Source: Halobacteriovoraceae bacterium
GTDB lineage: Bacteria > Bdellovibrionota > Bacteriovoracia > Bacteriovoracales > Bacteriovoracaceae
Direction of reading: 5' to 3'
NCBI GenBank assembly: GCA_963719505.1
Contig: CAVRCF010000005.1
Span: forward strand, 1,022,369-1,086,368
DNA: 64,000 bases
Shown one piece after another: positions 13,575 through 60,878 of this stretch (position 1 is the stretch's first letter; each line of letters opens with the position of its first letter). A program made the position numbers and the translations under genes. Under the pieces are notes generated by a model, which was not told the DNA's origin, made no database searches, and saw only the letters and a program-made list of their open reading frames with translations.

Positions 13575-13650
13575 GCGGTAGTAGCTCAGCTGGTAGAGCA
13601 TCTCGTTGCCATCGAGAAGGTCGTGAGTTCGAATCTCATCTACCGCTCCA
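13575..13650 (+). tRNA. tRNA-Gly (anticodon GCC), CCA encoded
   Basis: Cloverleaf folded by hand: acceptor GCGGTAG/CTACCGC, D arm GCTC-AGCTGGTA-GAGC, anticodon stem TCTCG/CGAGA with loop TTGCCAT, T arm GTGAG-TTCGAAT-CTCAT, discriminator T, then CCA. Confidence 0.93.
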
Positions 13651-18654: not shown

Positions 18655-21171
18655 CTACTGAACATAAAACCCTTTCCCTTGTACCTTCTTAATCCAATAA
18701 GGCACCTTAATATCTTCTCTTCTTTTTCCTGTCGCTAAATAAATATTTCTAAAACCGAGATCAAAGATTTCTTTGCTTAGTTCTTCTCCTTTGAGACCTT
18801 CCCCCAAATCAGAGTCAATATATATAGAAGTATTTTTATTGTAAGAAGTAGATGAACTTAAAAACTCTACCACACTAAAGTATGAAGAGAATTTTATATC
18901 ATTATTCTTTGCTGATCTTTTCCAATTTAAATGTGTAAATTTATCATCATCTATTAAAACAACTTCCTTAGGAGCCGATTGTTTAGTGAAACTTACAGCA
19001 ATATTTAAAACTGATTCTTTGGGGATCATTTTAATCCCAAACTTGGAACACATTTCTTGTACATCTAAATCTAAAAAATGGCTTGTAACCAAAGTACTAC
19101 GGTTATGAAGCTGATATGCATTGATTAAGTTTATACCTGTATCTAGTGAGCCAATAAGTTCTAAATCAATTAGATAAGAATACTCCTTTAAATCTTTATC
19201 CATTGCCCAATTTTCAAATTCTTTAGAGCTATATAAGTGAACTAATTTTGCATCAAGTGGGTTTAGTTTTTCATTCCAAAGCTTGTGAATTGACTCATCA
19301 TCATCAACGATTACAACTTGCTTAGAGGAAAGCTTAATTTTAGCAGTATACCAAGCCGGAGCCTCGATTTCATTCAAGGAAATTTTTAAAACAGTTCCTT
19401 GATCAGGATTCGATTCTATTAAAAGCTCTCCATTTTCTGATTCTATATAATCTTTTGCCTGATTAAGGCCTATTCCTGTACTATTTTTATTAAAACTTTT
19501 TCCATATTCAAAAACATCATTTAAATATTCTTTTTTAATTCCAATTCCATTATCTGAAATAATAATACTTACGTTTTCTTCATCTCGTTCTACATGAACC
19601 ACAATATAAATGGGGCTATTAGGCTTTTGAGCCTCGACAGAATTATTAATAATATTTGAAATAGCCCTATTAAAATCCGACTTTCTGATTTCTAAAAAAT
19701 AATCTTTAGAAGCAATTGAATCGAGTGATATATGAACATCTGGTCGATTTTTAAACTCAATACGTTTTTCAGAAACAATTCTTTTTAAAAGAGGATAAAT
19801 TGCTATTATTTCCTTTTTACTGCTTTCTTCAAGAATACTCTCTTCCTCATTGATTTTAAGGGTATTAATAATGTCTTGAATACGATTAAGGGATTGCCTT
19901 CCCATTAGTCTCAAGTCTTCTGTAACGCTATTTCGAGCTTCTAGCATAAAGAATTCTAGAGAAGTAAGAGGCGAATCAATATCATGTTGAAGCTTCTTAA
20001 TTATTTTAATATTTCCATTAGTGATCATTTGATGCATGCTTGCATTGGTAATAATTTTTGCCTCCTCAAATAGAGTTCGCACCATAACGGCCCCTAAAAT
20101 GAATATTTCGACGAGCAAACTAACTTTAACTAAATAGTTAACTTGAATTTCATTTATGTTCATAATACCTAGGTCTTTAAGCGTGAATGCAAGAGATGAA
20201 AAAAGAAACAGAGAAAAGCTAAACAAAAATGATTTTGAGTACTTTAACTTTCTAACCATCGCATAAATACATATACTCAAACTTGATACAGACAGCAATA
20301 GGGTTAAGTAACTGGTTAGCTTAATAATTGCTTGGTTATAAAATAATACACATAAAGCAAAGTGTACTACTGCCACAAACATTACTTTTCCATATGCCTT
20401 AATAAAGCGATCATTTTTTCTTTGATTTAGAAATGTTTTGTATATTAGCCCTACTGTTCCAAAGGTTAATATCCCACAGGCAAATACAACAGATCGGCTT
20501 ATGAAATACTGAGGCATAAATCTTAACATTGAAAATAAATAGCCTGAAAATGCTAATTGGATAATAAACAATGCAAAGATATGCATTGAGTAATAAATGA
20601 TTTCAACTTTTTTTCTAATATAGTAAAAAGCAAAAGTAAGTAAAATTGTTACAAATAAGACACCAAACCACAAACCATCAAAAATCCATTTTTGCTTCAA
20701 AAAAGACTGAAATTCATCTCGACTATTAAAAAGCATATATGGGAGTTGAATTGAACTCTGGGTATTAGTAATAGCAATAATTGTAGTATCTGATTCTCCT
20801 ATATTATCGAAATAGACATATTCGTCACCTTTATTGTCATTTTTTGAATAAGATTTCTCTTTTACTAATTCATTATTATTAAATTTATAGAAATTTATTT
20901 GATGAATCATTGGGAATGAAAAATAAAAAAGTTTATTACTTAGCTCATCATTAAGAATAAATGCGACTTTGTTTGTATTTTTAAAACCTAAGTTATTTTT
21001 CTTTGTCGACTTGGCACATTCAGAAATCTCCGCAATATTAATCTTTGAATTCACAAATGAATTGATAACGTCAATATCAGTACAATATTTGACGTTCGCT
21101 TGTACCGAGATTGAAATAAGAAGAATTAATAAGAAAACAAACTTATTGAGCACTATACCCCCCATCAACAA
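18655..21171 (-). CDS. Hybrid sensor histidine kinase: 7TMR-DISM-type sensor, HisKA/HATPase core, two receiver-like domains
   Basis: Signal peptide plus a ~160-aa extracytoplasmic domain, then seven hydrophobic helices. H-box LQHDIDSPL, N-box NNSVEA, G-boxes DNGIGI and GIGLNQA, then VVIVDDDESIH and VVLIDDDKF receiver-like segments. The start may be ATG 21165 or GTG 21153. It overlaps the SDR stop. Confidence 0.8.
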   Translation of the reverse strand: MLMGGIVLNKFVFLLILLISISVQANVKYCTDIDVINSFVNSKINIAEISECAKSTKKNNLGFKNTNKVAFILNDELSNKLFYFSFPMIHQINFYKFNNNELVKEKSYSKNDNKGDEYVYFDNIGESDTTIIAITNTQSSIQLPYMLFNSRDEFQSFLKQKWIFDGLWFGVLFVTILLTFAFYYIRKKVEIIYYSMHIFALFIIQLAFSGYLFSMLRFMPQYFISRSVVFACGILTFGTVGLIYKTFLNQRKNDRFIKAYGKVMFVAVVHFALCVLFYNQAIIKLTSYLTLLLSVSSLSICIYAMVRKLKYSKSFLFSFSLFLFSSLAFTLKDLGIMNINEIQVNYLVKVSLLVEIFILGAVMVRTLFEEAKIITNASMHQMITNGNIKIIKKLQHDIDSPLTSLEFFMLEARNSVTEDLRLMGRQSLNRIQDIINTLKINEEESILEESSKKEIIAIYPLLKRIVSEKRIEFKNRPDVHISLDSIASKDYFLEIRKSDFNRAISNIINNSVEAQKPNSPIYIVVHVERDEENVSIIISDNGIGIKKEYLNDVFEYGKSFNKNSTGIGLNQAKDYIESENGELLIESNPDQGTVLKISLNEIEAPAWYTAKIKLSSKQVVIVDDDESIHKLWNEKLNPLDAKLVHLYSSKEFENWAMDKDLKEYSYLIDLELIGSLDTGINLINAYQLHNRSTLVTSHFLDLDVQEMCSKFGIKMIPKESVLNIAVSFTKQSAPKEVVLIDDDKFTHLNWKRSAKNNDIKFSSYFSVVEFLSSSTSYNKNTSIYIDSDLGEGLKGEELSKEIFDLGFRNIYLATGKRREDIKVPYWIKKVQGKGFYVQ

Positions 21172-21862
21172 ATAACTCAGAGCCAGTCATAAATGATGTA
21201 TTATTTTCTATTATAAATTTCACGTACGTTGCTATTTCATCTGCTGTAGCAATACGCTTAACAGGATGAATTTGTTCTAAAGCAGTTGTACTTCCCATTC
21301 TTTTTTTCAAATCTGAAATGAGATTCGTATCTACTCCCCCTGGAGAAATACAGTTGATTTGAATATTTTGTTGAGCATACTCAATGGCCAAAGACTTTGT
21401 CAGTGCGACTATTCCTGCTTTGGAAGCTGAGTAGTAAGAGCTCCCAGTCATTCCACAGCTAGCGAGAACAGATGCTATATTTACGATTTTCCCATTACCG
21501 ACCTTGGCCATGTCTTCTAATTCTTTTTTCATCATTATAAATGTTCCTCTTAAATTCACACTTATAATACGGTCAAACTCTTCAATCGTTGACATAGTGA
21601 GAGGTTTATTTGGCCCCGGCATTCCAGCGGCATTTACAGCATAATTGATTAGGATATTCTTAGAGTTTAATTCCTTGAAAAGATTTTCAATTTCACCTAC
21701 ACTAGAAATATCACATTTGATTGCAATAACTTTATCGTTTTCAATTTCTATTGCGTTTATGTCAACTAAAACAATTTGATCAAAAAGGTTTTGATTCAAG
21801 CTTTCATAGGTTGCTCTTCCAATTCCACTCGCAGCTCCAGTAATAAGGATATTATTTTTCAT
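21143..21862 (-). CDS. Short-chain dehydrogenase/reductase (SDR)
   Basis: TGAASGIGRAT cofactor motif, NAAG, and the catalytic YSASKAG. Confidence 0.85.
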   Translation of the reverse strand: MKNNILITGAASGIGRATYESLNQNLFDQIVLVDINAIEIENDKVIAIKCDISSVGEIENLFKELNSKNILINYAVNAAGMPGPNKPLTMSTIEEFDRIISVNLRGTFIMMKKELEDMAKVGNGKIVNIASVLASCGMTGSSYYSASKAGIVALTKSLAIEYAQQNIQINCISPGGVDTNLISDLKKRMGSTTALEQIHPVKRIATADEIATYVKFIIENNTSFMTGSELFVDGGYSAQ

Positions 21863-22047
21863 TGTATTTCCTTTAATTGCATCTTTTCTAAGATCAGTAA
21901 AATTTCCTCTTCTCTATCAAGTGCAATTTCCAACATCTCTTTTGTGTCTTCATTATTTATAACTGCATCTTCTTGGATGCATTTAAGGAGGTTGGCTACG
22001 TTATGAATATAGCCATTGATTGAATGAAATGCTTTGTCTTTACTCAA
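21859..22047 (-). CDS. Small 62-aa helical protein of unknown function
   Basis: 4-nt overlaps with both neighbours suggest translational coupling. No family recognised. Confidence 0.4.
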   Translation of the reverse strand: MSKDKAFHSINGYIHNVANLLKCIQEDAVINNEDTKEMLEIALDREEEILLILEKMQLKEIQ

Positions 22048-23399
22048 TGTAATCTCCCAACTTTAAAGTTCTTATCTTTATGAGTTTGTAAATAACGAGA
22101 CACATGAGCAGGAGAAACATCCATAGCCTTTGAAGCAGTCCTAACTATTCCATTATGTCTCTTAGTCATACCCTGAATGAGCTCTTTCTTAAAAATAACT
22201 AAAAAATCCTTCAGCCCCATTTCTTCAACAAGATCCAAATGTTCGTCAGTGACAAGTCCTTTAGACTCAAAGGTATTATTTTTAACCCTTGAAGGTAATA
22301 CATCCGGAGTTATTAAACGATGGCCATGTACAACCCAATTCTCGACTAAATCTTGGATTTCTCTTGTATTTTGAGGCCATGAATAGTTATGTAAACATTC
22401 AAGCGCCAAGTCATTAATTAAAATACGGAATGGTTGTTTTGAAATAAAATAATGAAATAAAAGTTCTATATCTTCTCTTCTCTCTCGTAGTGGTGAAAGA
22501 GAAATTTGAAAGGTACTAATTCTTGCATATAAATCTTTTCTAAAAGTTCCCATTTCAATCATTGAATGGATATCTTCACAAGTTGCACTCATAACTCGGA
22601 AGTCAGATTTAACTTTACGGTTAGAACCGACAGGATAAAACTCTTTTTCTTCTATAGCTTTTAAAAGAGTCTTTTGAGATTTTGATGAAAGAGAATGTAT
22701 TTCATCAAGAAAGATGACTCCTCCATCTGCTAGTTCTAAAAGTCCTTTCTTCTCCTTCTTTGCACCTGTGAATGCATTATCAGTATGGCCAAATAGTTCA
22801 CCAACAAATAATTCATCTGAATACTGTGAGCAATTTATTTCTATAAAATTTTCGACTTTGAGAATATCTCTAATAAGATGGGCAACTACCCTTTTACCTG
22901 TTCCTGTTTCGCCATGAACAAAAATGGGCTTATTAGAAAAAGAAAGATTTTTAATCTGATAGAGTTCTTCTGATAAAGATTGAGATTTAGTAATAAAGCT
23001 TTGGTTAATTATGTTTTCAAACTCTATATCTTTTCTGTGATTTTCAAATCTTCTCCAAACAATGTCTAATTTGTGATTATTAAACGGTTTATTCAAAAAA
23101 TCTTTAGCACCATTTATAAATGCTTCTTCAAGAGTCTCTTTTGCAGTTTCTCCAGATACAACGATTGAATATATGTTCAGATGATTGGCCAGTTTTAAAA
23201 GCCTTAGCCCATCAAGCTCTCTAGATAAGTTTAAATCAAAAAATGCGATATCAATATCTTCTGCCTTTATTAAATGGTGTGCATCATTCACATCATTTGC
23301 AACGACAACATTCCCAAAAGAGGCCAATAACCTCTTATTTAATTGAGCTGTTAATAAATCATCTTCAACAATTAAGATTTTAATTTTTTGTTTATTCAT
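22044..23399 (-). CDS. Sigma-54-dependent response regulator (NtrC family: REC-AAA+-HTH)
   Basis: Receiver ILIVEDD..DIAFFDLNL. AAA+ Walker A GETGTGKRV, ELFGH, the GAFTGA-type loop as NAFTGA, and Walker B VIFLDEI. C-terminal Fis-type HTH ASKAMDVSPAHVSRYL. Confidence 0.88.
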   Translation of the reverse strand: MNKQKIKILIVEDDLLTAQLNKRLLASFGNVVVANDVNDAHHLIKAEDIDIAFFDLNLSRELDGLRLLKLANHLNIYSIVVSGETAKETLEEAFINGAKDFLNKPFNNHKLDIVWRRFENHRKDIEFENIINQSFITKSQSLSEELYQIKNLSFSNKPIFVHGETGTGKRVVAHLIRDILKVENFIEINCSQYSDELFVGELFGHTDNAFTGAKKEKKGLLELADGGVIFLDEIHSLSSKSQKTLLKAIEEKEFYPVGSNRKVKSDFRVMSATCEDIHSMIEMGTFRKDLYARISTFQISLSPLRERREDIELLFHYFISKQPFRILINDLALECLHNYSWPQNTREIQDLVENWVVHGHRLITPDVLPSRVKNNTFESKGLVTDEHLDLVEEMGLKDFLVIFKKELIQGMTKRHNGIVRTASKAMDVSPAHVSRYLQTHKDKNFKVGRLH

Positions 23400-23556
23400 A
23401 AATGGCTATTAACCAAAATTATTTTAAAAACTCAAAGAAAAAGATGATTAAATGTAAGGTTTATTGACTTTTAGTCAACAATGAGACAACTAAGCAACTG
23501 ATTTCACGAAGAGAGAATCAAATGAATTGCAAGAGTTATATTGTTTCTTCTTTAAA

Positions 23557-25830: not shown

Positions 25831-25862
25831 ATTCTATACTCTGGACTATAGTCCAGAGTCAA
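25831..25862 (-). promoter_or_regulatory. MerR-type promoter/operator: TTGACT, 20-bp spacer containing a 22-bp perfect palindrome, then TAGAAT
   Basis: The minus strand reads TTGACTCTGGACTATAGTCCAGAGTATAGAATTAGTTCATG. The palindrome ACTCTGGACTATAGTCCAGAGT spans 25838-25859. Only 6 nt separate the -10 element from the merR ATG. Confidence 0.7.
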
Positions 25863-26470: not shown

Positions 26471-28654
26471 TTAAATTTTTGTCATTTTTAATCTCAATGA
26501 ATTTGCAATAACCGAGACCGAGCTAAAGCTCATTGCTGCAGCGGCTATCATTGGACTCAATAAAATCCCAAACCATGGATAAAGCAATCCCGCCGCGATT
26601 GGAACTCCTGCAGCATTATAAATAAATGCAAAAAATAAATTTTGTTTTATATTTGCCATAGTGGATCGACTCAACCTTCTTGCTCTTACAATTCCTCGAA
26701 GATCCCCCTTAACCAATGTTACAGAAGCACTTTCCATTGCAACATCAGTTCCAGTTCCCATGGCAATTCCAACATCTGCAATGGCAAGTGCGGGCGCATC
26801 GTTTATTCCATCTCCGGCCATCGCAACCACTTTCCCTTGGGCTTGCAATTTTAAAATTACTTCTACTTTTTGTTCTGGAAGAACTCCTGCAATGACATTA
26901 TCAATATTTAACTTGCTCGCAACAGCTTCTGCAGTTGTCTTACTATCTCCAGTAAGCATAACAATATCTAAACCTTCTCCATGTAATTCGGCTATTGCTT
27001 GTATACTAGTTTCTTTAATCGGATCGGCGACTCCAATTATTCCTGCGAACTCATTATCTATTGAGACAAACATAACTGTCTGCCCTTCTTTTCTATAACT
27101 TTCGACCTCATCAATAATATGATCAACCGTAATATTTTCAGCGTTCATTAATGCTTTATTACCAAGAGCAATATTTTTTCCATTAATACTGCCTTTAACA
27201 CCTTTACCCGTTATTGAAGAAAAATTCTCAACATCGACAAGGCTTATATTTTCCTTTTTAGCTCCTCTCACAATCGCCTCTGCAAGTGGATGTTCACTAC
27301 CATTTTCTAAACTTGCGACAAGAGTCAAAAACTCTTCATTTTTGATTGTTGCTATAGGTTTAATCGTTACTAATTCAGGTCTTCCCATAGTTAGTGTACC
27401 CGTTTTATCAACGACCAAAGTATCAATCTTTCTCAACACTTCAATCGCCTCGGCATTTTTAAACAATACTCCCATGGTGGCAGCTCTACCAGTTGAGACC
27501 ATTATCGACATAGGAGTTGCCAGTCCAAGAGCGCATGGACAAGCAATTATTAGTACTGCGACTGAATTTATTATTGCATAGGCCATTGCTGGGCTTGGAC
27601 CAAAAGATGCCCAAACAATAAAGGTTACTACTGCGACCAATAAAACGATTGGCACGAAGCACCCTGCCACTGTATCTGCTAATTTTTGAATGGGAGCTTT
27701 ACTTCTTTGTGCTTCTGCAACCATATGAATAATTCGAGACAGTAAAGTATCAGAACCAATTTTAGTCGCTTTCATAACAAAGCTTCCGGTTCCGTTTATG
27801 GTAGCACCGACAACGTGACTTTCTTTAAATTTTTCGACAGGAATTGGCTCACCAGTAATCATTGATTCATCAACATTGCTTTTACCTTCTAATACAATCC
27901 CATCGACAGGAATTTTTTCTCCAGGTCTAACTCTTAATTTGTCATTTAATTGGACATTTTCAAGAGGAATATCTTCCTCTTCTCCATCTTTATTTATTCT
28001 TCTGGCCGTTTTGGCGGCAAGACCCAGTAGTTTTTTTATTGCCTCTCCAGTTTGGCTTCTTGCTTTAAGCTCCAATACTTGTCCCAAAAGAATCAAAGTA
28101 ACAATAACTCCTGCTGCTTCAAAATAGACTGACACATGTCCATTACTATCTCTAAACGAAACGGGAAATAGATCTGGAATTAATGTTGCAATTAAACTGT
28201 AGATAAAAGCAACGCTGACCCCAATACCAATGAGGGTAAACATATTTAAATTTCTTCTAACAATTGAACTTAGTCCTCTTTCGTAAAATGGCCACGCTGA
28301 ATATAGACACACAGGTATAGCGAGTATCAACTCAATATAATTTTTCATTTTTGCTGAAAACATGTTTGAAATAGGCTGACCTGGTAAGAGGTCCCCCATT
28401 GAGATTATGAATAAAGGAATGGTGAATAAAGCAGCAAGCCAGAACCTTTTCGTCATATCCTTTAATTCGACATTTTCTCTGTCATCAGCAATAAGAGCTT
28501 CTAGTGCCATACCGCATTTCGGACAATTTCCAGGCCCGATCTGCCTTATCTCTGGATGCATGGGACACGTGAAGATAGAAGTACTTTCTACATTTACTTT
28601 TTTGCCATCACTTTTATGCTTATGTTCGGAATGACAGTTTTTATGATCTTCCAT
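26471..28654 (-). CDS. copA: Copper-translocating P1B-type ATPase
   Basis: N-terminal [25 protein letters not shown] metal-binding domain, TGEP, CPC ([12 protein letters not shown]), DKTGTLT, HP (SEHPLA) and [10 protein letters not shown]. Confidence 0.92.
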
Positions 28655-29894: not shown

Positions 29895-29913
29895 TATACC
29901 CCTTATGGGTATA
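29895..29913. promoter_or_regulatory. CsoR-type operator candidate, box 1
   Basis: TATACCCCTTATGGGTATA (arms TATACCC/GGGTATA), 100 bp upstream of the DUF3347-YHS-copA genes. Confidence 0.6.
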
Positions 29914-30182: not shown

Positions 30183-32330
30183 TTAAAACAGAGGTTTTTT
30201 TCTCTTTTTCTTCTTCGTTCGTCCTCGATTGAGATTAACCCTGACGCCCACGCCAACAGTTGGTCCAATATTGGAATCATATCTATAATTAACTCCAACG
30301 CTTGTTCTCGGAGTTGCTTGATAGTACAGGCCGGAATTAAATTCCCACTCAGGACTGTCACTAATACCAAACGCTCCTCTTCCAGCAAAATCAATGCTAA
30401 CTCTTTTGGTTATTGGAAACATTTTGGAGAGCGAAACAATTAACTTACCATCGGATCTCACATGAGTTTTCACTTCTACCCTTAACGGTATGGTGTATGC
30501 GGCACCAAGCACACTGTGCATTTGACCATCATCATACTCAACACCGGCATAAATGTTTAAGAAGCGATCAATATACCGTTTAAATAATAATTCACCATCA
30601 AGGTTGTTCAGATCATACTGATCCATCTCTAAGTTTATATCAACTTGATACTTACCTTTAGATATTTTGACTTCTAATTCAGAAGAGTTTGTTGCAACTC
30701 CAAGTTCAGCACTAGTGAAAGCAGAATCATCATGAGTCATGTAGCGAGTCCATCTTCTTTCATTTTCAACAAGTGTATCTGGTCTTTTGAAGTTTTCGTA
30801 CTTAACCAATCTCGCCATTCCCATCTTCATGTGGTAGAGGTTGTGACAGTGTAAAAACCAAATTCCCGGTTCATTTGCATGAAATTCAATTGTGATCTCT
30901 CCCATTGGTGGAACATCTACAGTATGGAATTTTGGAGCAAAATGACCTTGACCGTTTAGCACTCTAAAGAAGTGACCATGAAGGTGCATCGGATGATGCA
31001 TCATCGTTTTATTTACATATTTAATTCTAACAACTTCATTATATTTAACCATCAAGTATTTATCTTCAGAAAACGCTTTACCGTTAATCGTCCAGTTGTA
31101 TCGGTCCATATCTCCGTTTAATTCTAAAGTGTAGTCTCTTCTAGGAAGCGACATATCAAACATTGTCATTTTTGGAGATTTAATATCTTTGTAGTTTAAT
31201 CTTTTTGTCATTGGCATCTGCTCAATCTCTTCTTGAGAAACTTTCATTGTATGGCCATCGTGTCCACCACCGTGACCTCCACCGTCGCCCATACCACCAC
31301 CATGATCCATATCACCCATACTATATGGACTTGGTCTCATTTTCATGGGTACTTTTTCAATATGATGACCTTTTCCTAAAATTAAACTTCCCGCTCCAGT
31401 AATATCTTGGGCCGTAGCTTTAAACTCTAAAGCTTTATGTGCTGGCATAGTAAAAATAACATCGTAAGTCTCAGCTATACCGATTAATATTTCGTTTACC
31501 TCAAGAGGTTGAATTTCAACTCCATCTTTTGTAATGACTTTGAAGTTAAATAATTTTCCAAGGTTGGCGTAAAAGTAAGTTGAAGCTGAAGCATTTATAA
31601 GACGCAGTCTAACTGTTTCGCCAGCTTTTATATTCATTAGGTGTTGTTGTTGTTTACCATTAATTAAAAAAGCATCATACCCAACATCACTCAAGTCCAT
31701 AGGACCCATTTTAGTCCATTCACTTTTAACATAATCCCAAAACTTACCTGCTCTTATGGCACTGTAAATAGAGGCATCTGTGTTTTTCTTATAAACGTAA
31801 TAATCTCCATCCATCTTTAAGTTAGCTAGAACTTGATCTGGATGTTCATTAGTCCAATCACTCATTACGACTTCAATATCATGGTCTGTTTTAAATCTGT
31901 CATGATCGTCTTCAATTACGATTGCACCGTATAGTCCTCTTTGCTCTTGAAGTTCAGTATGTGAGTGATACCAAAATGTTCCCGTATGAATTAATGGGAA
32001 TTCAAAAACATGAGTTTTCCCCGGTTCAATAATAAGCGTATTGGAGAACTGCGGTCCATCTTGATCCCAAGGTACTAATAAGCCATGCCAGTGAAGAGTC
32101 GTTGGTTCATCAGTTTTATTATTAACTGTAATTAGGGCCGTATCACCTTTACTAAATTTTAAGGTTGGAGCAGGGATTGATCCATTAATGGCCAAAGCGT
32201 GCTTAACCTCAACTCCAGTGAAATTGACTGTTTTGTGTTCTACATTTAGTTCGTATTCTACAATCTTTGCAAATGAACTAAAACTTAGAAGAAGTGCTAA
32301 TAATAAGAAAAATTTATTCGAGATAAACAT
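30183..32330 (-). CDS. Multicopper oxidase (CopA/PcoA type) fused to a C-terminal CopB-like beta-barrel domain
   Basis: Signal peptide. Copper ligand motifs LHWHG, WYHSH, HPMHLHGH and HCHNLYHMKMGM. A Met/His/Gly-rich insert MGDMDHGGGMGDGGGHGGGHDGH. About 200 extra C-terminal aa have alternating beta-strand patterns resembling CopB (FLNIYAGVEYDD...GVNYRYDSNIGPTVGVGVRV) and end in F. Confidence 0.85.
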   Translation of the reverse strand: MFISNKFFLLLALLLSFSSFAKIVEYELNVEHKTVNFTGVEVKHALAINGSIPAPTLKFSKGDTALITVNNKTDEPTTLHWHGLLVPWDQDGPQFSNTLIIEPGKTHVFEFPLIHTGTFWYHSHTELQEQRGLYGAIVIEDDHDRFKTDHDIEVVMSDWTNEHPDQVLANLKMDGDYYVYKKNTDASIYSAIRAGKFWDYVKSEWTKMGPMDLSDVGYDAFLINGKQQQHLMNIKAGETVRLRLINASASTYFYANLGKLFNFKVITKDGVEIQPLEVNEILIGIAETYDVIFTMPAHKALEFKATAQDITGAGSLILGKGHHIEKVPMKMRPSPYSMGDMDHGGGMGDGGGHGGGHDGHTMKVSQEEIEQMPMTKRLNYKDIKSPKMTMFDMSLPRRDYTLELNGDMDRYNWTINGKAFSEDKYLMVKYNEVVRIKYVNKTMMHHPMHLHGHFFRVLNGQGHFAPKFHTVDVPPMGEITIEFHANEPGIWFLHCHNLYHMKMGMARLVKYENFKRPDTLVENERRWTRYMTHDDSAFTSAELGVATNSSELEVKISKGKYQVDINLEMDQYDLNNLDGELLFKRYIDRFLNIYAGVEYDDGQMHSVLGAAYTIPLRVEVKTHVRSDGKLIVSLSKMFPITKRVSIDFAGRGAFGISDSPEWEFNSGLYYQATPRTSVGVNYRYDSNIGPTVGVGVRVNLNRGRTKKKKRKKPLF

Positions 32331-32371
32331 TTGAAGACTCCATTATTAATAATTTACAGTTACCCTATATA

Positions 32372-32388
32372 AGCAATATAGGTGCCAA
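32372..32388 (-). promoter_or_regulatory. Consensus sigma-54 (-24/-12) promoter upstream of the MCO-CopB gene
   Basis: The minus strand reads CTTGGCACCTATATTGCTTAT, that is TGGCAC-N5-TTGC with exact GG-N10-GC spacing. About 40 nt upstream of ATG 32330. It overlaps the inverted repeat CCTATAT-N5-ATATAGG (32364-32382). Confidence 0.65.
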
Positions 32389-32578
32389 GTAAACTGGAAT
32401 TTCAGACAGGATTACAGGGACATAGATAGCATCTCCTTTCAAAAGCTTTATAGATGTATAATAACAAGACAAGACAAGCCAATGAAATATTGCCAATACT
32501 AGATGAAAGGTTCAAAAAAGACAGAGTTTAAATAAAATTGAAGTTATCTGCCACAATATCAGTTATGAGGGGAGAAAT

Positions 32579-32863
32579 TTATTTACAAGTATTTTTAATA
32601 ATTTTCATTAGTTCATCAATTTTCTCATCAATATCTTTTTTATCATTTTTCATAGCCGCATCTTTCACACACCAATTGAGGTGTTCTTCTAAAATAATAA
32701 ACTCAATGGACTTTAGAGCACTTCTAATTGCTTTAATCTGATTGATAATATCAACACAATATTTTTCATTTTCAATCATGGCTTTGATACCACGAACTTG
32801 GGCTTCAATTCGATTGATTCGCGTTATTTGTTGTTTATGGTTTGCACCAACTTTTTCTTTCAT
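32579..32863 (-). CDS. csoR: CsoR-family copper-sensing repressor
   Basis: 94 aa. RINRIEAQVRGIKAMIE, with a C...H...C ligand set (EKYCVD, EEHLNWC). Confidence 0.85.
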   Translation of the reverse strand: MKEKVGANHKQQITRINRIEAQVRGIKAMIENEKYCVDIINQIKAIRSALKSIEFIILEEHLNWCVKDAAMKNDKKDIDEKIDELMKIIKNTCK

Positions 32864-33009: not shown

Positions 33010-33028
33010 TATACAATGGGGGGGTATA
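33010..33028. promoter_or_regulatory. CsoR-type operator candidate, box 2
   Basis: TATACAATGGGGGGGTATA lies between divergent csoR (start 32863) and the DUF1624-like gene (start 33050). Confidence 0.55.
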
Positions 33029-39701: not shown

Positions 39702-39715
39702 TTTATTATTTGCAA

Positions 39716-39732
39716 ATACCCAGTAGGGGTAT
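39716..39732. promoter_or_regulatory. CsoR-type operator candidate, box 5
   Basis: ATACCCAGTAGGGGTAT, 15-36 bp upstream of the 38925-39701 gene. Confidence 0.55.
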
Positions 39733-43772: not shown

Positions 43773-43789
43773 ATACCCCCCAAGGGTAT
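43773..43789. promoter_or_regulatory. CsoR-type operator candidate, box 7
   Basis: ATACCCCCCAAGGGTAT lies between divergent starts 43751 (-) and 43918 (+). Confidence 0.55.
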
Positions 43790-45320: not shown

Positions 45321-45888
45321 TTACCAGATATAAGAAATTCCGGCTCCTGCTCCAAAACGGCTTTCATAACTTGTAAAAATGGATAGATTCTTTGTTGCAA
45401 TATATTCAAGGCCCAGGTTCCAGACATAATCTTTTTCCCAAGTAGTTATTATCTGGCAACTGTTCTTTCCAACCAAAATCATTCGTAACTTCCCAGTACC
45501 CATAAATTGCAACTCTTGAAAAAAGTAAGTAATCCACATCGAAAGAGAGTTGAAGGTTTAAATCAGAGTCAATTCTCACATTTGAATCTACAAAGTAAGG
45601 TAAGAGCCATTTAATACCTAACGTTCCAACCGTCTCAGTCGCATCAAGTTCTTCCTCTACCTTATTTTCTGTATTTGCTCCTAAATAAACTCTAAAGTAA
45701 TCAGATAAAAAACGATCATAACTTATATCCGCCTCTAGGTTTTTATTCCAACCGTATTCAGCACCGAGGTTCAATTGATTTCGTGTGTTTGAACTTGTTA
45801 TTTCAATTGAACTATAATGACTTGCAGCTTTTGTCTCGGCCCATGTATACCAATGCTTATCCATGTCTAAAACATTTGATAAGTGCAA
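45321..45888 (-). pseudogene. CopB-like beta-barrel region, split from the MCO gene and internally frameshifted
   Basis: Two overlapping frames (45406-45888 and 45321-45539) together parallel the C-terminal CopB-like domain of the 30183-32330 protein. There is no signal peptide at the ATG 45888 start. Ends GAGAGISYIW. Confidence 0.55.
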
Positions 45889-47482
45889 AATTATCTAACC
45901 TTGAATCTCTCTTGTCTCCATAACTAAAGATTCGCGCCATCCCTCCCTTCATATGGTAGAGAACGTGGCAGTGAAAAAACCAATCTCCCGCTTCATTTGC
46001 TGGAAATTCAATAGTTACTGACTTCATAGGTTCAACGTCTACAGTATGCTTAAGAGGAGAATATTCTCCATTTTTATTTAACACTCTGAAAAAATGTCCG
46101 TGCAGATGCATCGGATGGTGCATCATCGTTTTATTATTTAACACAATTCGAATTACTTCACCTCGTCTAATCTTAATCTTATCGACTTCTGATAAAGTTT
46201 TCCCGTTTAAACTCCAGACATAGCGCCACATATTTCCCGTAAGATTTAATTTAATATTTCTGACATTATTATCAGAGAGGTTTGTTTTGACAGGAGACTT
46301 TAAAATATCATAACTAAATTCTGCCTTATTAGAGTTCATCTTCTCATCCACTTCCATGTCATCACTTTTCATATTATGATCCATCATTTTATGTGATGAG
46401 TGGTCCATCTTTTTCATATTAGACATTGAGTGATCCATTTCCATACCAGAACTCATATCCATGTTGTGATTCATGCCACCTGAGTTTTTCGTTCTCTCAA
46501 TATAATCAGGAGCTTTTACGACCATCGCTTTATGGACTTTACCACGGCCAAGTATTGCAGTGGTAAAACCCGAACCATCTTGAGCCGAAGCCCTAAATTC
46601 AATACTTCCGGCGCTAGGAATTGTAACAATATAATCATAAGTCTCGGCAATTGCATGGAGTACTTTTGATGTCTTAACTGGAACAACATCGACACCATCA
46701 GAGGAAACCAACTTTGCATTAGCATCTCCAATTGTCGTCCAGAAATAAGTTGAAGCTGCTGCATTTATAACTCTAACTCGAACTCTTTCACCGGCTTTTA
46801 ATTCGGGGTACTGAATCCTCTTTTTACCATTAATTAAAAATGCATCATAATAAACATCAGAAATATCTATTCCCGGCATTCTCATTTTCCAAAGCCCTAA
46901 AAGACCGCCTAAGGCTCCATTTGAGATTGCATCAGCGATACTAACAGCCGTTTTCTTTTTTATGCTGTACCAATCACTCCCTCTTTTTAGAGTTCGCAAA
47001 ACCTCATTTGGATTTTCATCTGTCCAATCAGATAGTACAAGCACAAGATCTCTATCATATTTTAACTTTTGATTTTTAGGTTTAATAACAATTGAGCCAT
47101 AAACGCCTTGTTGCTCCTGTAAACCTGTATGCGAGTGATACCAATATGTCCCCGAATGTGATATTGGAAAACGGTATGAAAACGTCTCACCGGGCCTAAT
47201 AGGTGGTGTTGTTAAGTAAGGCACGCCGTCTTGAAAGTTAGGTAAAATGAGCCCATGCCAATGAATAGAGGTCTCAACATCCATATTATTAGTGACATTA
47301 ATCTCAGCAGTGTCCCCCTCTGTGAATGTTAATACCGGTCCCGGAATAGAATCATTTATGGCCATTCCCACTCTTTCTTTACCAGAGAATGAAACATTTT
47401 TTTCATCTATTGTAAGATCATAGCTTTTTGCAAAACTAGAAAGGCTTATAAGAATTGAAAGCATAAGAATGAGTAACTTCAC
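45857..47482 (-). CDS. Multicopper oxidase (second copy, CopA/PcoA type)
   Basis: GTG 47482 after GGAG gives signal peptide VKLLILMLSILISLSSFA. Motifs IHWHG, WYHSH, HPMHLHGH and HCHVLYHMKGGM. Met/His-rich insert MNHNMDMSSGMEMDHSMSNMKKMDHSSHKMMDH. Confidence 0.85.
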   Translation of the reverse strand: MKLLILMLSILISLSSFAKSYDLTIDEKNVSFSGKERVGMAINDSIPGPVLTFTEGDTAEINVTNNMDVETSIHWHGLILPNFQDGVPYLTTPPIRPGETFSYRFPISHSGTYWYHSHTGLQEQQGVYGSIVIKPKNQKLKYDRDLVLVLSDWTDENPNEVLRTLKRGSDWYSIKKKTAVSIADAISNGALGGLLGLWKMRMPGIDISDVYYDAFLINGKKRIQYPELKAGERVRVRVINAAASTYFWTTIGDANAKLVSSDGVDVVPVKTSKVLHAIAETYDYIVTIPSAGSIEFRASAQDGSGFTTAILGRGKVHKAMVVKAPDYIERTKNSGGMNHNMDMSSGMEMDHSMSNMKKMDHSSHKMMDHNMKSDDMEVDEKMNSNKAEFSYDILKSPVKTNLSDNNVRNIKLNLTGNMWRYVWSLNGKTLSEVDKIKIRRGEVIRIVLNNKTMMHHPMHLHGHFFRVLNKNGEYSPLKHTVDVEPMKSVTIEFPANEAGDWFFHCHVLYHMKGGMARIFSYGDKRDSRLDNFALIKCFRHG

Positions 47483-47484
47483 AT

Positions 47485-47587
47485 TTTTCTCCAAATTGTA
47501 TTTTTGAATTAGAATCTTTTGAGACTCTTTTATCCAATTATTAATCACTTTAATTTCGGCTACCGTTAATTTATAGTCCAAGTGCAT
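47485..47587 (-). pseudogene. Remnant of the 3' end of a Haem_bd-like gene, read through into the MCO frame
   Basis: HLDYKLTVAEIKVINNWIKESQKILIQ parallels HWDSGLTENEIFEVNKWIKDSKLILRQ at the C-terminus of the 42795-43325 protein. Nothing homologous lies upstream. Confidence 0.4.
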
Positions 47588-51603: not shown

Positions 51604-52542
51604 TTAATGAACACAAGTCCTTTCTTCAATAATTAGATGTTCTATGTCAAACTTACTTAATATAATATCTCTATAATATTCACTCCCCTTTAGTGAGTTA
51701 TTATAAATGACAACCTCACAGGCATGGGCACTCGGAGCAATTCTCCATATATGTAAATCTGTTACCTCTACCTCCTTATCTTCTGTAAAAAGTGATTTAA
51801 TCGCATCAGCATCTATTAACTTTGAATTTCCATCAAGTAGCTCCCATACAGTAGCCTTACAAAGACCGTAGGCCCATTTCAATATAACGAGAGAACCGAC
51901 GATTCCCATAACTGGATCTGCCCAAGTCCAACCGTAATACTTACCAAGGACTAAAGCTACAATTGCTAAGACAGAGGTAAATGCATCAGCAATAACATGA
52001 ACAAGAGCACTTTTATGATTATGATCATGCACATGATCGTCATGGTGATGATGTTTGTGACTATGGTCATGCCCATGATGATGATCGTGATCTCCAGATA
52101 ACAATAATGCACTTACAAGGTTTACAATAAGCCCAAGAATTGAAACTCCAATCGCTGTTGTAAAATTTATTTGTTCAGGGTTCAGAAAACGATGAAAGGA
52201 TTCAACTCCCATGAATATTGCAACTAATCCAAGCATTAATGCACTTGTATAACCTCCTAACGGAATGAACTTACCTGCTCCAAAAGTAAATTTTGAATTA
52301 AGCTTTTCTGATCTTGCTAGTTTATATGCAATAACTGAAATACCTAAAGCTCCAACGTGGCTGGCCATATGCCAACCATCAGCGAGTAAAGCCATTGATC
52401 CAGTAATATAACCAAAATAAACTTCTACTATCATTGTTACAAAAGTCAGTAAGACCACAAAAATGGTTCTTTTTTCATTGGAACCAATTTTATCATCTTG
52501 GATTACATAATCATGTGTATGAGTGTGTGATGCGTGTGACAT
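51604..52542 (-). CDS. Cation diffusion facilitator (CzcD/DmeF-like divalent metal efflux)
   Basis: Six TM helices. ADGWHMASH and HVIADAFTS metal-site motifs. His-rich loop DHDHHHGHDHSHKHHHHDDHVHDHNHK. C-terminal cytoplasmic domain. Confidence 0.88.
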   Translation of the reverse strand: MSHASHTHTHDYVIQDDKIGSNEKRTIFVVLLTFVTMIVEVYFGYITGSMALLADGWHMASHVGALGISVIAYKLARSEKLNSKFTFGAGKFIPLGGYTSALMLGLVAIFMGVESFHRFLNPEQINFTTAIGVSILGLIVNLVSALLLSGDHDHHHGHDHSHKHHHHDDHVHDHNHKSALVHVIADAFTSVLAIVALVLGKYYGWTWADPVMGIVGSLVILKWAYGLCKATVWELLDGNSKLIDADAIKSLFTEDKEVEVTDLHIWRIAPSAHACEVVIYNNSLKGSEYYRDIILSKFDIEHLIIEERTCVH

Positions 52543-52550
52543 ATTTCTTC

Positions 52551-52829
52551 CTATTTCCAGTAAGTTTTTAATAATTTTATAAGTTCTAGTGAAGATTTAT
52601 CCTTAGCTGACTTTGGATTCGTTTTATTTGTCATAACATGCTCTTTAATATGATCTTCCACAAGAGACCCCATTAATCCATTTAAACCACCTCGACATGC
52701 ACTAAGCGTTTGTAAGACCTCAAAACAATCCTTACCCTCTACAAGTCCTCTTTCTACTGCTTCAAGCTGTCCTTTAATTCTCTTAATTCGTGAAATGATC
52801 TTTTTGTTATCTTCAGCTAAATGCCCCAT
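52551..52829 (-). CDS. rcnR: RcnR/DmeR-like Ni/Co-type CsoR-family repressor
   Basis: 92 aa. The residues line up exactly as His3, Cys35, His60, His64 (MGH.., KDCFEV, EDHIKEH), which is the RcnR fingerprint. Confidence 0.8.
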   Translation of the reverse strand: MGHLAEDNKKIISRIKRIKGQLEAVERGLVEGKDCFEVLQTLSACRGGLNGLMGSLVEDHIKEHVMTNKTNPKSAKDKSSLELIKLLKTYWK

Positions 52830-52854: not shown

Positions 52855-52869
52855 TACTATACCCCAGTA
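52855..52869 (-). promoter_or_regulatory. RcnR-type operator candidate
   Basis: The minus strand reads TACTGGGGTATAGTA (TACT-G4-TAT-AGTA; compare E. coli RcnR TACT-G6-N-AGTA). It lies 26-40 bp upstream of the rcnR-like start. Confidence 0.5.
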
Positions 52870-53636: not shown

Positions 53637-55550
53637 ATGAATTATTTATTATTGATTATATTAATATTTAGTACCGCTTGCTCATTTAAAAGTGAAAATA
53701 AAAAGAAAGAAGATTCGATAACTTCAACAAGAGAGCCTCAAACGGGAATACCTGAAGATGAATTAAAGAAGCTCGACTCTGATGGTGACAAGATAAGTGA
53801 TTATGATGAAATTCAAAATGGATATGATCGTCATATAGCAAACCTACCCAAGTTAAGAGTAAATTTCCTTCAGGACTATAACATTACTGTGAATTTTGAT
53901 AATGAAACAAATTTTGTTATGGATACAAAGATTGCCCGAGATAATCCAGACTTTAAGTATCGAGTTGGTAATTTATTTTTAAAAGAAAACTCATACGATA
54001 ATGCAGCAAAGCTGGGCCGGTTCTCTGGTGTGTCATGGGGAGAAATTAAACAACAGGACTTCACATGGATAAAATATCCTGAGATCGACAAAGATTTTTA
54101 TTTTAAAAAAGCACGAGAATATCGATATTGGTCAAAAAGTAATATTAAAGACTCTACGATCTCACTAGAAAACACTCTTAAGTTAATGGAATCACCACTT
54201 TTTGAAAGTATCGAAGAAGTCGAATTAAACTTTTACTATTATAGTTACTCAAAAGAATCTTATGTATTACTGCATACTGAAAAACTCGATCGTGTATTTC
54301 AGTCAGGAACAAGAGAAGATTTCCAAATCAAAATTATGAATCCTCCAGCAGAGTTAATTGAAGATACATATTTTCGTCATGGGGAGTTTATTATTTCAGA
54401 AGTTAAGGACTTTTTTATTCCTAGTATGAAAATGAAGTATTCTGATCTACTTGCATCTGTAAAGGCTAAAACAATTCCGATCTATAAGACGACTCCGTTT
54501 GAGTTTGATTTAAACTATGTTGCAATCAAACAGAATGGAGAAAAGTTCATTGATATCTTAACTAAACTCTACTCAGATAAATTCACAGTCTCTGAAGATA
54601 GTTTAACGCAAGTTGAGCAATTCACAACAAACCTCCCCGACTACTCGTATCTTCATGAAGTAAACAAAGAAGATAAACTCGGTAAGTGGTTTATTATGAC
54701 AAATAAAATCAAAGATCATTATTTGAAACATAACTTCACAGCAAATGATGCAATTACTTTATCCTATTTAACTGGAACTGAGTTATCAAAAAGAGTTGAT
54801 GAGAAAGTGTACTCTTTTTCAAAAGAGGTTAAAAGTAAAGATAACGGAAAACTCTATGCTCTAGGGAATATAACCAATAATAGTGAAATGGAGATTTCAA
54901 TCTTTCTAAATGAACTTGAAGGTGTAGAGCTCAACGTAAAAGATGGACGTTTTGCATATCGCCCGCCTAATTGTAGGAATTGTACTGGTACTAACTGGTC
55001 TGTTTCATCTGAATTTCAAATCAACTCCTTTTCAAACTTTAATCGTCAATGGTTTGTACAAAATATTGATGAAGCAAAATCTTCTTTTGAGATACTCATT
55101 AATAACAAAGTTTTAAATCTAGAAGAGCTAATTGCCTTAAACCATCTAACTTTAGAGTTTAAAGGAGATGAATCCTACAAGTATCTCCATATAGTTCTAA
55201 AAGATCTACACGAGCTAGAAGTTATTGAAGCAGGAAAAGAAAACGTCGCTTTTATAAGAATGCTTCCTATTAAAGTTGGTGAGATTGGAGAAGGTGTCCA
55301 GATCAATTCTATGGGAGGTCACAACATAGATAAAGTCTTTCATGCTGGATTAATTTGTCTTCAAGAGTCTGCAAAGAGAAAGGTTCCTTTAGCAGTAACA
55401 AGTTGGAAGTTTGAAGACTGGCAGAAAAAAGTTCCTTGGGGACAACCTGATCGAAGAACAGGCTACAAACCATCAAAAGGCCAATTAAAGAAATACTGGA
55501 CTGGAACGATTGTAGATCTAATTTCAACGATAACTAACAACTATAACTAG
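53637..55550 (+). CDS. Large lipoprotein of unknown function, first big gene of the T4SS operon
   Basis: Lipobox IFSTAC. Calcium-binding-like LDSDGDKISDYDEIQNGYD near the N-terminus. No other family recognised. Confidence 0.55.
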   Translation: MNYLLLIILIFSTACSFKSENKKKEDSITSTREPQTGIPEDELKKLDSDGDKISDYDEIQNGYDRHIANLPKLRVNFLQDYNITVNFDNETNFVMDTKIARDNPDFKYRVGNLFLKENSYDNAAKLGRFSGVSWGEIKQQDFTWIKYPEIDKDFYFKKAREYRYWSKSNIKDSTISLENTLKLMESPLFESIEEVELNFYYYSYSKESYVLLHTEKLDRVFQSGTREDFQIKIMNPPAELIEDTYFRHGEFIISEVKDFFIPSMKMKYSDLLASVKAKTIPIYKTTPFEFDLNYVAIKQNGEKFIDILTKLYSDKFTVSEDSLTQVEQFTTNLPDYSYLHEVNKEDKLGKWFIMTNKIKDHYLKHNFTANDAITLSYLTGTELSKRVDEKVYSFSKEVKSKDNGKLYALGNITNNSEMEISIFLNELEGVELNVKDGRFAYRPPNCRNCTGTNWSVSSEFQINSFSNFNRQWFVQNIDEAKSSFEILINNKVLNLEELIALNHLTLEFKGDESYKYLHIVLKDLHELEVIEAGKENVAFIRMLPIKVGEIGEGVQINSMGGHNIDKVFHAGLICLQESAKRKVPLAVTSWKFEDWQKKVPWGQPDRRTGYKPSKGQLKKYWTGTIVDLISTITNNYN

Positions 55551-55558
55551 GAGAAAAG

Positions 55559-55816
55559 ATGGCTTTGCTCATAAGTATATATTTATTTTTTTCACAAAAT
55601 GTATTTGCTCGAAGCCTAAAGGCTACAGCAGATAAGCTAGCGCAAGAAACTAACAGAATCGGACTTGGAGTTGCTCTATTTGGACTATGCTTGGCAGGGA
55701 TATATTTCATGCTAGGAAAGCAAGATGCATCAGCAAAAATGACACAAGTTTTAATGGGGATTGGAATAGTGATTTTAGGCCCAAGTATTCTAACTTTTAT
55801 CAAAGGATTAGCATAA
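55559..55816 (+). CDS. VirB2/TrbC-like pilin
   Basis: 85 aa with a long signal peptide and two hydrophobic helices (GLGVALFGLCLAGIYFML, VLMGIGIVILGPSILTFI). Sits directly before the VirB3/VirB4-like genes. Confidence 0.55.
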   Translation: MALLISIYLFFSQNVFARSLKATADKLAQETNRIGLGVALFGLCLAGIYFMLGKQDASAKMTQVLMGIGIVILGPSILTFIKGLA

Positions 55817-56067
55817 TGGAACGATTTCCAAAATTCTTAAGTACAAATCCAGTGATTTATGGACTGAGTTTCTATGAGATCGGAGCATTAGTATTAGCTC
55901 TATACATTGCAATGATACTAAATCTTTCCTCTTTTCACAGTTTGATAATTTGTTTGGGATTTATCATTGTTATCAAATTCATTAAAAAGAACTTTGACCT
56001 AAAAGGCTTTTTATCTAAAAAATCTAATCAAATGGATTTAACACAATTTAAAGGTGGTCGAAAATGA
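55816..56067 (+). CDS. VirB3/TrbD-like small membrane protein
   Basis: ATG 55816 overlaps the pilin stop (ATAATG). 83 aa with a hydrophobic hairpin. The track ORF starts further upstream at 55687. Confidence 0.5.
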   Translation: MERFPKFLSTNPVIYGLSFYEIGALVLALYIAMILNLSSFHSLIICLGFIIVIKFIKKNFDLKGFLSKKSNQMDLTQFKGGRK

Positions 56068-59936: not shown

Positions 59937-59938
59937 AT

Positions 59939-60858: not shown

Positions 60859-60878
60859 GTAACAAAAAAGGCATTTAT

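Follow-up and report, generated by a model that had tools for sequence, protein, structure and literature searches.

Promoters recognized by RNA polymerase with sigma-54 (RpoN) have the consensus TGGCAC-N5-TTGCW and need an AAA+ enhancer-binding protein. Among responses to metals and envelope stress, the ZraSR (HydHG) pair of Escherichia coli is a sigma-54 two-component system. In Myxococcus xanthus, CorSR up-regulates MXAN_3421, the oxidase gene cuoA and copA when copper is present, and CorR is composed of a receiver, a Sigma54_activat domain and an HTH_8 domain (PMC3707914). Four putative -24/-12 promoters, lying ahead of such genes, were described for the curA operon of this bacterium, and copper dependence was shown with lacZ fusions and a deletion mutant (PMC3707914). 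An earlier note on the DNA studied here had called a sigma-54 copper circuit unusual, a view to which CorR provides a precedent (PMC3707914). Here, we analyzed a stretch of 64,000 nucleotides (hereafter the window) from contig CAVRCF010000005.1 of a Halobacteriovoraceae bacterium, in which a sigma-54-type motif lies between csoR and a gene encoding a multicopper oxidase with a CopB-like C-terminal domain (i.e., the oxidase gene). On balance, we consider this motif to be probably, though well short of certainly, a genuine sigma-54 promoter of the oxidase-CopB gene that has replaced control by the repressor CsoR.

The motif is non-coding, stands in the csoR-oxidase spacer and is oriented like the downstream oxidase gene (minus strand, ...CAGTTTACTTGGCACCTATATTGCTTATATAGGGTAACTG...; positions 32393-32357 read TTTACTTGGCACCTATATTGCTTATATAGGGTAACTG). 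It matches all 11 specified positions of TGGCAC-N5-TTGCW, plus the preceding pyrimidine. The 5 nt between TGGCAC and TTGCT are CTATA, and GG (32386-32385) and GC (32374-32373) are exactly 10 nt apart. When set against the longer consensus YTGGCACG-N4-TTGCW, the site (T-TGGCAC-c-TATA-TTGC-T) deviates solely at the weakly conserved G after TGGCAC. The exact pattern TGGCACNNNNNTTGCW was found once on both strands of the window (128 kb), with 0.03 matches expected from the mean of 100 dinucleotide-preserving shuffles of the window. Since only ~5% of positions fall at such a placement, the chance expectation of the exact motif there would be ~0.0015. From the -12 GC to the oxidase ATG (32330) there are 42 nt with a ribosome-binding site in between, and the usual sigma-54 geometry predicts a start 12 nt past the C of the -12 GC, leaving a 31-nt leader. 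These readings bear out most of what the earlier note had said about the motif, namely the TGGCAC-N5-TTGC string with its exact GG-N10-GC spacing, the distance of about 40 nt to the ATG with GGAG in between, and the overlap with the inverted repeat CCTATAT-N5-ATATAGG, which is a perfect one. Its limits needed a small correction, as the string had been placed at 32364-32388 and the quoted 26-mer, correct in itself, spans 32389-32364, one base more.

Matches of lower quality were also inspected. Three more sites with one mismatch were found in the window, every one of them within open reading frames (ORFs). One (26738-26753, TGGAACTGATGTTGCA; codons GGAACTGATGTTGCA) corresponds to the codons of the GTDVA motif of a P-type ATPase. 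The same string recurs upstream of the oxidase gene in Flavobacterium loci, where a neighbouring ATPase gene would presumably be its source; in L024, L030, and L032 it lies ~280 nt upstream. Such GTDVA codons, with one mismatch to the consensus, repeatedly mislead scans of copper loci for -24/-12 sites. Across ~1.9 Mb there were three exact sigma-54 matches, that of the window and two in the loci fetched for comparison, and these two are no more than chance predicts.

Comparison with close relatives revealed what the motif has probably replaced. Five distinct csoR-oxidase loci (L081/L082, L089, L090/L099, L100, and L115), with oxidases 85-88% identical to that of the window, keep the csoR-oxidase order with spacers of 95-132 bp (e.g., CATTGCTGCAAGTAACCCCCGGGGGGTATTATTG in L081, GCGTTGCGTCAAGTAGCCCCCGGGGGGTATATTAG in L100, and CATTGCGTCAAAGAACCCCCTCAGGGTATATTAAT in L115). 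Their spacers contain TTGC(G/T)N, followed by (A/G)(A/C)CCCCC..GGGGTAT and TAT(A/T)(T/A)T. Specifically, in each of them a -35-like TTGCNN and a -10 hexamer TAT(A/T)(T/A)T are 18 nt apart, and the gap is filled by a textbook CsoR operator. More distant loci (L083, L084, L088, L093, L095, and L097) have CCCC..GGGG boxes beside A/T-rich -10 hexamers. No CsoR box of the ATACCCC-N-GGGGTAT type was detected at 32331-32578 of the window. Only the last ~45 nt of its 248-bp spacer align with the relatives; beyond them, a search for the origin of the spacer turned up nothing similar, either among the fetched loci or elsewhere in the window. Two alignments are possible: in one, the TTGC of the window is the counterpart of the ancestral -35 TTGC, and in the other, its TATATT (32380-32375) matches the ancestral -10. 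In both, the CCCCC half of the CsoR box is gone.

Three canonical CsoR boxes persist elsewhere in the window and appear to define a CsoR regulon, borne by an integrative and conjugative element (ICE), that does not include the oxidase gene. Since the CsoR of the window keeps its metal ligands and canonical boxes remain at 29895, 39715, and 43773, the loss of the box is specific to the oxidase promoter. The ancestral state is thus CsoR-repressed sigma-70 transcription, lost in the lineage of the window at the oxidase gene specifically, and this gene seems to have left CsoR control. The earlier note had proposed a sigma-54 circuit layered on top of CsoR. That part is not supported, as the box present in every close relative is missing here while others persist. 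In a separate observation, L081, L089, L090, and L099 were found to carry TGGGAGCATTGCTGCA ~80 nt before the oxidase ATG and immediately ahead of the CsoR box. We rejected the GG-N10-GC string of these L081-type relatives (TGGGAG-N5-CTGCA) as an ancestral sigma-54 site, as it has three mismatches and is absent in L100 and L115. It is probably a chance occurrence, and it could be a weak proto-site.

The match itself is very unlikely to be due to chance. A full match would be expected by chance at ~1e-5 to 1e-4 per 100-150-nt upstream region, and, assuming that 1-3% of the promoters of a sigma-54-using bacterium are sigma-54 dependent and that a few percent of these show the full consensus, the odds would favour a real site more than tenfold. 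The spacer is roughly twice as long as that of the relatives, leaving room for an enhancer, in keeping with a requirement for activator sites upstream. On the minus strand, 32331-32578 gave no sigma-70-like site scoring 9/12 or better. The promoter is unchanged in near-identical copies from seawater and biofilm metagenomes. The presence of an activator gene on the same contig and of many activators of its family in the clade implies that the hosts would use sigma-54, and hence have rpoN. Under the proposed mechanism, RNA polymerase with sigma-54 would bind TGGCAC/TTGCT as a closed complex and would start near the predicted A only upon remodelling by an AAA+ activator. This promoter would have arisen recently on the cargo of the ICE, replacing an ancestral sigma-70 promoter with its CsoR operator between -35 and -10, and the oxidase gene would have moved from copper-relieved repression to activator-dependent control. 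The central proposal of the earlier note, a sigma-54 promoter, is supported by the full consensus, placement and orientation of the motif, by the lack of a sigma-70 site of at least 9/12 and by an intact activator 9 kb away; its layering on CsoR, its obvious regulator and its unusualness are not supported. The coordinates of the features are collected in the table.

Table. Features of the oxidase promoter region and of the surrounding element (window coordinates).
Feature	Position	Strand	Basis or remark
-24 element TGGCAC, preceded by T (YTGGCAC)	32382..32387	-	Sequence read; part of the sole exact consensus match in the window
-12 element TTGCT	32372..32376	-	GG-N10-GC spacing exact
Predicted transcription start, A at 32361	32359..32363	-	Predicted from the usual sigma-54 geometry
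GGAG ribosome-binding site	32338..32341	-	7 nt before the ATG
Perfect 7-5-7 dyad CCTATAT-TGCTT-ATATAGG, about -21 to -3	32364..32382	.	Repeat search
Lineage-specific ~190 bp upstream of the promoter, expected place of enhancers	32390..32578	-	No homology to fetched loci
Copper-resistance-type multicopper oxidase, 715 aa, with CopB-like C-terminal domain	30183..32330	-	Pfam/NCBIfam
csoR, 94 aa, Cys-His-Cys copper-ligand pattern kept	32579..32863	-	Pfam Trns_repr_metal, E 4e-27
NtrC-type sigma-54 activator, candidate regulator	22044..23399	-	Receiver, AAA+ sigma-54 interaction domain, diverged Fis-like helix-turn-helix (HTH)
Short-chain dehydrogenase	21862-21143 (within 18655..21862)	-	Partner of the activator
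7TMR-DISM histidine kinase with two receiver-like C-terminal segments	21171-18655 (within 18655..21862)	-	Partner of the activator
MerR/ZntR-type promoter: TTGACT, dyad ACTCTGGACT-AT-AGTCCAGAGT, TATAGA	25838-25862	-	Directly before the merR-like gene
Canonical CsoR box TATACCCCTTATGGGTATA	29895..29913	.	Before the operon of 203-aa gene, YHS protein and CopA ATPase
Canonical CsoR box AATACCCAGTAGGGGTAT	39715-39732		Precedes the 258-aa gene at 39701
Canonical CsoR box ATACCCCCCAAGGGTAT	43773-43789		

The activator, 9 kb from the oxidase promoter and recorded with the oxidase gene on one 1.26-Mb contig, matches PF00158 (E 1e-51) and Response_reg (E 2e-15), the latter with the acidic pocket and its Asp. 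Walker A (GETGTGK), Walker B (FLDEI) and the arginine finger (RKDLYAR) are present, and the C-terminus (...GIVRTASKAMDVSPAHVSRYLQ...) is Fis-like by eye, with no HTH_8 reported by Pfam. Its sigma-54-contacting loop (ELFGHTDNAFTGA, residues ~205-213) reads NAFTGA, with FTGA kept. Within the family the loop is GAFTGA in 51 members and GSFTGA in 51, and NAFTGA is limited to the clade of the window (79-96% identical). This family comprises ~90 clusters of 50-96% identity in Bacteriovoracales-type metagenome bins, named "sigma-54-dependent" by their sources. In NCBIfam the activator is the equivalog of no named activator.

Relatives of this gene allowed the context of the module to be compared. In L107-L112, the activator is 96% identical and the kinase 90-93%, with identities of 82-95% over kinase, dehydrogenase and two small ORFs and of 90-95% over dehydrogenase and kinase taken together; here the module follows merR-merT, and no oxidase gene was found within the 10 kb fetched on either side. 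In L113 and L114, whose activators are 58-60% identical, the layout is activator, 62-68-aa ORF, enzyme and kinase, and homologues of the type IV secretion genes of the window (32-76% identity) lie a few kb away. The cargo, sensors and accessory enzymes of these two elements are different (PNP/periplasmic-binding protein, or cupin). As the layout of the module is kept in ICEs with differing cargo, we read it, from gene order, as belonging to the backbone of this ICE family, which speaks against a role dedicated to copper. Sigma-54-like sites with at most two mismatches were not detected in intergenic DNA within 10 kb of the module in L107-L114, nor near the activator in the window, and the visible 50 kb of the element contain a single consensus sigma-54 site, the oxidase promoter. 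The activator gene is preceded by a palindrome, TTGACT-N3-AGTCAA (TTGACTTTTAGTCAA, 23464-23478), which is kept in the 96% identical relatives (~65-80 nt upstream of the activator gene in L107) and has a similar counterpart in L114 (TTGAAC-AAAC-GTTCAA, ~180-195 nt upstream). It may be an operator for autoregulation or for an ICE regulator. No counterpart of it was found upstream of the oxidase gene. A conserved linkage between activator and oxidase was considered and rejected: L088 has an activator near another oxidase, and it is only 31% identical. That the activator and its kinase are the obvious candidate regulators, as the earlier note had put it, is therefore not supported: they belong to an ICE backbone with varied cargo and sensors, and neither a shared upstream site nor another sigma-54 promoter was found. 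If the promoter is real, regulation by this activator is a tentative assignment, rather less than an even prospect, and the link between the two is one of proximity.

Several observations weigh against a sigma-54 promoter at the oxidase gene. TGGCAC-N5-TTGC is absent in 12 close and medium relatives, and a site with at most two mismatches within 300 nt upstream was found in 0 of 74 distant oxidase-CopB loci from other phyla, the ATPase-codon artefact aside. The motif is conserved solely in near-identical strains. Parts of it may descend from sigma-70 elements, to judge by the alignments above, and the TTGGCA within it is itself -35-like. No enhancer sites were recognized in 32390-32578, where repeats are at chance level (the candidates being TGT-N11-ACA at 32471-32455, the palindrome TATTGGCAATA at 32498-32488, and CCTTTCA/TGAAAGG), and no consensus for integration host factor was found upstream of the promoter. 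A search for RNA runs containing the stretch returned near-identical DNA contigs only, and no ORF with an RpoN box turned up in the DNA searched for one, namely the window and ~2 Mb of fetched loci. The literature search on sigma-54 in Bdellovibrio or Halobacteriovorax yielded nothing usable. To these points can be added the fit of the dyad to another type of promoter. A spacer of 19-20 bp bearing a dyad between -35 and -10 is the geometry of MerR-family promoters, and the perfect 19-bp dyad (arms CCTATAT, 32382-32376, and ATATAGG, 32370-32364) exactly fills the gap from a -35-like hexamer matching at 5/6 to the next hexamer. The motif could accordingly be a coincidental resemblance within a sigma-70 promoter of one of three forms, namely a MerR-type promoter with TTGGCA (32388-32383), the dyad and GTAACT/TAACTG; a promoter with TTTACT (32393-32388), N16 and TATATA (32371-32366); or the ancestral -10 TATATT, which would have survived without a -35 and, once the CsoR box was lost, would drive weak constitutive expression. 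The last would agree with the MAFFT alignment, which places TATATT against the -10 hexamer of the relatives, and the dyad adds to the appeal of the MerR form, as only ~2% of random 16-nt sites in the window are overlapped as much by a perfect repeat with 7-bp arms. This overlap is mildly unexpected, not compelling. However, no combination of these hexamers reaches 9/12, and the -10 candidates of the MerR-type form are poor, lacking either the A at -11 or the T at -7. The sole MerR-family gene of the window comes with a ZntR-like operator of its own, which is different (ACTCTGGACTATAGTCCAGAGT), the CueR-type copA promoter of a related element uses a GC-rich dyad (CCTCCCC-CGA-GGGGAGG), and the dyad at the oxidase gene has neither a second copy nor a cognate regulator in the window. 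From base composition, the 11 sigma-54 positions would arise by chance at ~1e-4 or lower per promoter, even with TTGC granted by descent, and we regard a sigma-70 promoter in any of the three forms as improbable. The dyad may be an operator for some repressor or a by-product of rearrangement. Binding of CsoR to it was rejected, as its GC and AT blocks follow each other in the opposite order to those of CsoR boxes, and canonical boxes are still present at other places.

The oxidase gene might also need no promoter at this place. No intrinsic terminator was found between csoR and the oxidase gene, so read-through from the csoR promoter could express the two as an operon, with the motif an inert chance match, and this too counts against a sigma-54 promoter. 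RNA folding shows nothing unusual in the region (z = 0.6), the two genes share a strand, all relatives have csoR next to the oxidase gene, and a site with a C7 tract and TATAC/GTATA lies upstream of csoR (33028-33010). On the other hand, the regulated promoter of the relatives lies between csoR and the oxidase gene and not just ahead of csoR, an untranslated stretch of 248 nt is long for the junction of two genes in an operon, and an exact motif at this place has the very low chance expectation given above. We therefore judge read-through without a working promoter to be the least probable of these explanations, and a poor prospect in itself. A further proposal, which corresponds to the circuit of the earlier note and which we count as a sub-case of the sigma-54 promoter, is that the 7TMR-DISM kinase phosphorylates the ICE-borne activator in response to copper or to envelope stress, and that the activator then binds DNA upstream of 32390 to switch on this promoter. 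The activator is the only one in the window and a complete one, from its receiver with the Asp through the AAA+ motifs to the apparent Fis-like HTH at its C-terminus; the oxidase motif is the only consensus site available on the visible element, and neither the window nor six related ICEs showed another target close to the activator. Nonetheless, the module is ICE backbone, with unrelated cargo in two relatives and no oxidase within 10 kb in L107-L112. A 7TMR-DISM sensor beside a dehydrogenase would suggest an organic ligand rather than a metal, the palindrome before the activator gene is not repeated before the oxidase gene, the loop is NAFTGA as opposed to G(A/S)FTGA in most of the family, and the activator near another oxidase in L088 is a distant one. 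This circuit is thus unlikely, and we consider it equally doubtful that the activator-kinase module of the ICE backbone captured a cargo oxidase gene through replacement of a CsoR/sigma-70 promoter by a sigma-54 promoter. The sigma-54 promoter itself remains our preferred reading of the motif.

The genes around the promoter were assigned by profile matches, which confirmed the flanking genes named in the earlier note (i.e., the oxidase with its CopB tail, CsoR, the NtrC-type activator and the 7TMR-DISM kinase). The oxidase has three cupredoxin domains (Pfam Cu-oxidase_3, Cu-oxidase, and Cu-oxidase_2) and scores 369 bits against the copper_res_A subfamily of NCBIfam. Its C-terminal 205 aa match CopB weakly (PF05275, E 1e-4, below the Pfam cut-off). 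The N-terminus, read by eye from the 5' end of the ORF, has a hydrophobic leader resembling a signal peptide, without a twin-arginine motif. Oxidase-CopB fusions of ~700 aa are widespread, occurring in Bdellovibrionota, Bacteroidota, Verrucomicrobiota, Acidobacteriota, and others (L001-L080), and the fused polypeptide joins a periplasmic oxidase with an outer-membrane-type domain. A genome scan with the oxidase gave, among the matches listed, mostly distant fusions of this kind. Exact-product look-ups returned no record for the oxidase of the window, its 93% identical relative P0001, or the CsoR of the window, which closely resembles that of L081. Scans of viral contigs gave no matches, and a plasmid search gave distant oxidase matches only. 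Two contigs of Halobacteriovorax type share a one-mismatch sigma-54-like site, TGGCATAAGTCTTGCT followed by CTATATAAAAG (L068 11707-11722 and L104 5707-5722, minus strand), located ~600 nt downstream of an oxidase homologue. Some 150 nt upstream of csoR, beside a divergent acyltransferase-like gene, the minus strand at 33010-33028 reads TATACCCCCCCATTGTATA, with a single C7 tract flanked by inverted TATAC/GTATA, like the "type 1" sites of RcnR.

The minus strand carries, in order, csoR, the 248-bp spacer, the oxidase gene, a CsoR box, the 203-aa gene, the YHS gene and a CopA-type ATPase gene (28654-26471), followed by an operon of merR (merR-like, 25824-25405), merC, a thioredoxin-like gene and merT, by two small ORFs, and by the genes of activator, dehydrogenase and kinase. 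Type IV secretion genes are found at 53637-63502 (TraG/VirB4-like P-loop, TrbI, CagX-like, and coupling protein). At the other end, a tRNA-Gly(GCC) gene (13575-13650) is followed by a gene for an HTH_31 regulator; the same end genes occur in L109, where the HTH_31 protein is 97.6% identical and an HD_5 gene stands beside it as in the window. The region from ~13.6 kb to beyond 63.5 kb looks like an ICE inserted at tRNA-Gly, and the combination of metal-resistance genes, type IV secretion genes and tRNA-Gly identifies the region as the metal-resistance cargo of an ICE. The best protein matches of the window come from metagenome bins named Halobacteriovoraceae, Bacteriovoracaceae or Bacteriovoracales, and near-identical DNA was found in seawater and biofilm metagenomes. 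Other metal genes were observed on the same element. At 45406-47587, another oxidase gene, this one not fused (576 aa), overlaps with a short ORF resembling CopB (160 aa, weak match to PF05275), a classical copAB-type pair that the element carries in addition to the fused version; past a gap of 183 bp come a DUF411 (CopG-like) gene and a YceI gene. A second CsoR-family gene (52551-52829), closest to the FrmR and RcnR models and with a Cys/His-x3-His pattern, lies upstream of a cation-diffusion transporter gene (51604-52542) and is preceded by an RcnR-like site (TACTGGGGTATAGTA, 52855-52869).

If the sigma-54 promoter is real, the locus would be a clean natural case of promoter-class replacement between csoR-oxidase orthologues that are 85-88% identical, and would show how fast metal-resistance cargo on a mobile element can change its regulatory logic. 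Sigma-54 control of copper oxidases would then reach beyond Myxococcus to Bdellovibrionota, and the activator-kinase module that a marine ICE family conserves would gain its first candidate target. Should the module have captured the oxidase gene, a mobile element would have rewired its cargo onto element-encoded, enhancer-dependent control, and copper detoxification would answer to a signal sensed by the element (through 7TMR-DISM, and possibly not a metal) instead of cytoplasmic copper. The promoter swap opens no long-standing question. A copper oxidase under sigma-54 control has a precedent, and each component by itself is of a known kind. What would be particular here is the carriage by a conjugative element, the fusion to CopB, and the replacement of a CsoR/sigma-70 promoter by a sigma-54 element over a very short evolutionary distance.

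Among known systems, CorSR and the curA operon share with the window a sigma-54-dependent response regulator with a kinase, an oxidase (cuoA), a copper P-type ATPase, and -24/-12 promoters that are putative in M. xanthus. The host is a predatory bacterium of the former Deltaproteobacteria, and that of the window belongs to the Bdellovibrionota, likewise predatory. In contrast to the window, where the candidate regulator is 9 kb off in the backbone of a mobile element, the regulator genes of M. xanthus lie inside the copper operon. The likeness is one of domains, those of the window being predicted from its sequence. ZraSR resembles the proposed circuit in that a sigma-54 promoter of a gene for a metal-linked envelope protein is under an NtrC-type regulator, and the activator of the window matches the ZraR model of NCBIfam in part (199 bits, cut-off 760). 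ZraSR differs in responding to zinc or lead, in its target (zraP and not an oxidase), in a regulator gene adjacent and divergent to this target, and in a periplasmic sensor that is not of the 7TMR-DISM type. The copper-resistance systems pco/cop (PcoA-PcoB and CopA-CopB, with PcoRS/CopRS) and cueO/CueR are similar to the window in having a copper-resistance oxidase together with a CopB-like outer-membrane part. However, they use regulators of the OmpR or MerR type at sigma-70 promoters, whereas the window has oxidase and CopB in one polypeptide whose N-terminus has no twin-arginine motif. Finally, the CsoR-repressed operons (copZA of Bacillus subtilis and the cso/RicR regulon of Mycobacterium tuberculosis) share with the window a csoR with the Cys-His-Cys set, and ATACCCC-N-GGGGTAT operators over sigma-70 promoters in its relatives and at three other promoters of the window. 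Unlike in those systems, the oxidase promoter of the window is without a box and has a -24/-12 element in place of the CCCCC left half.

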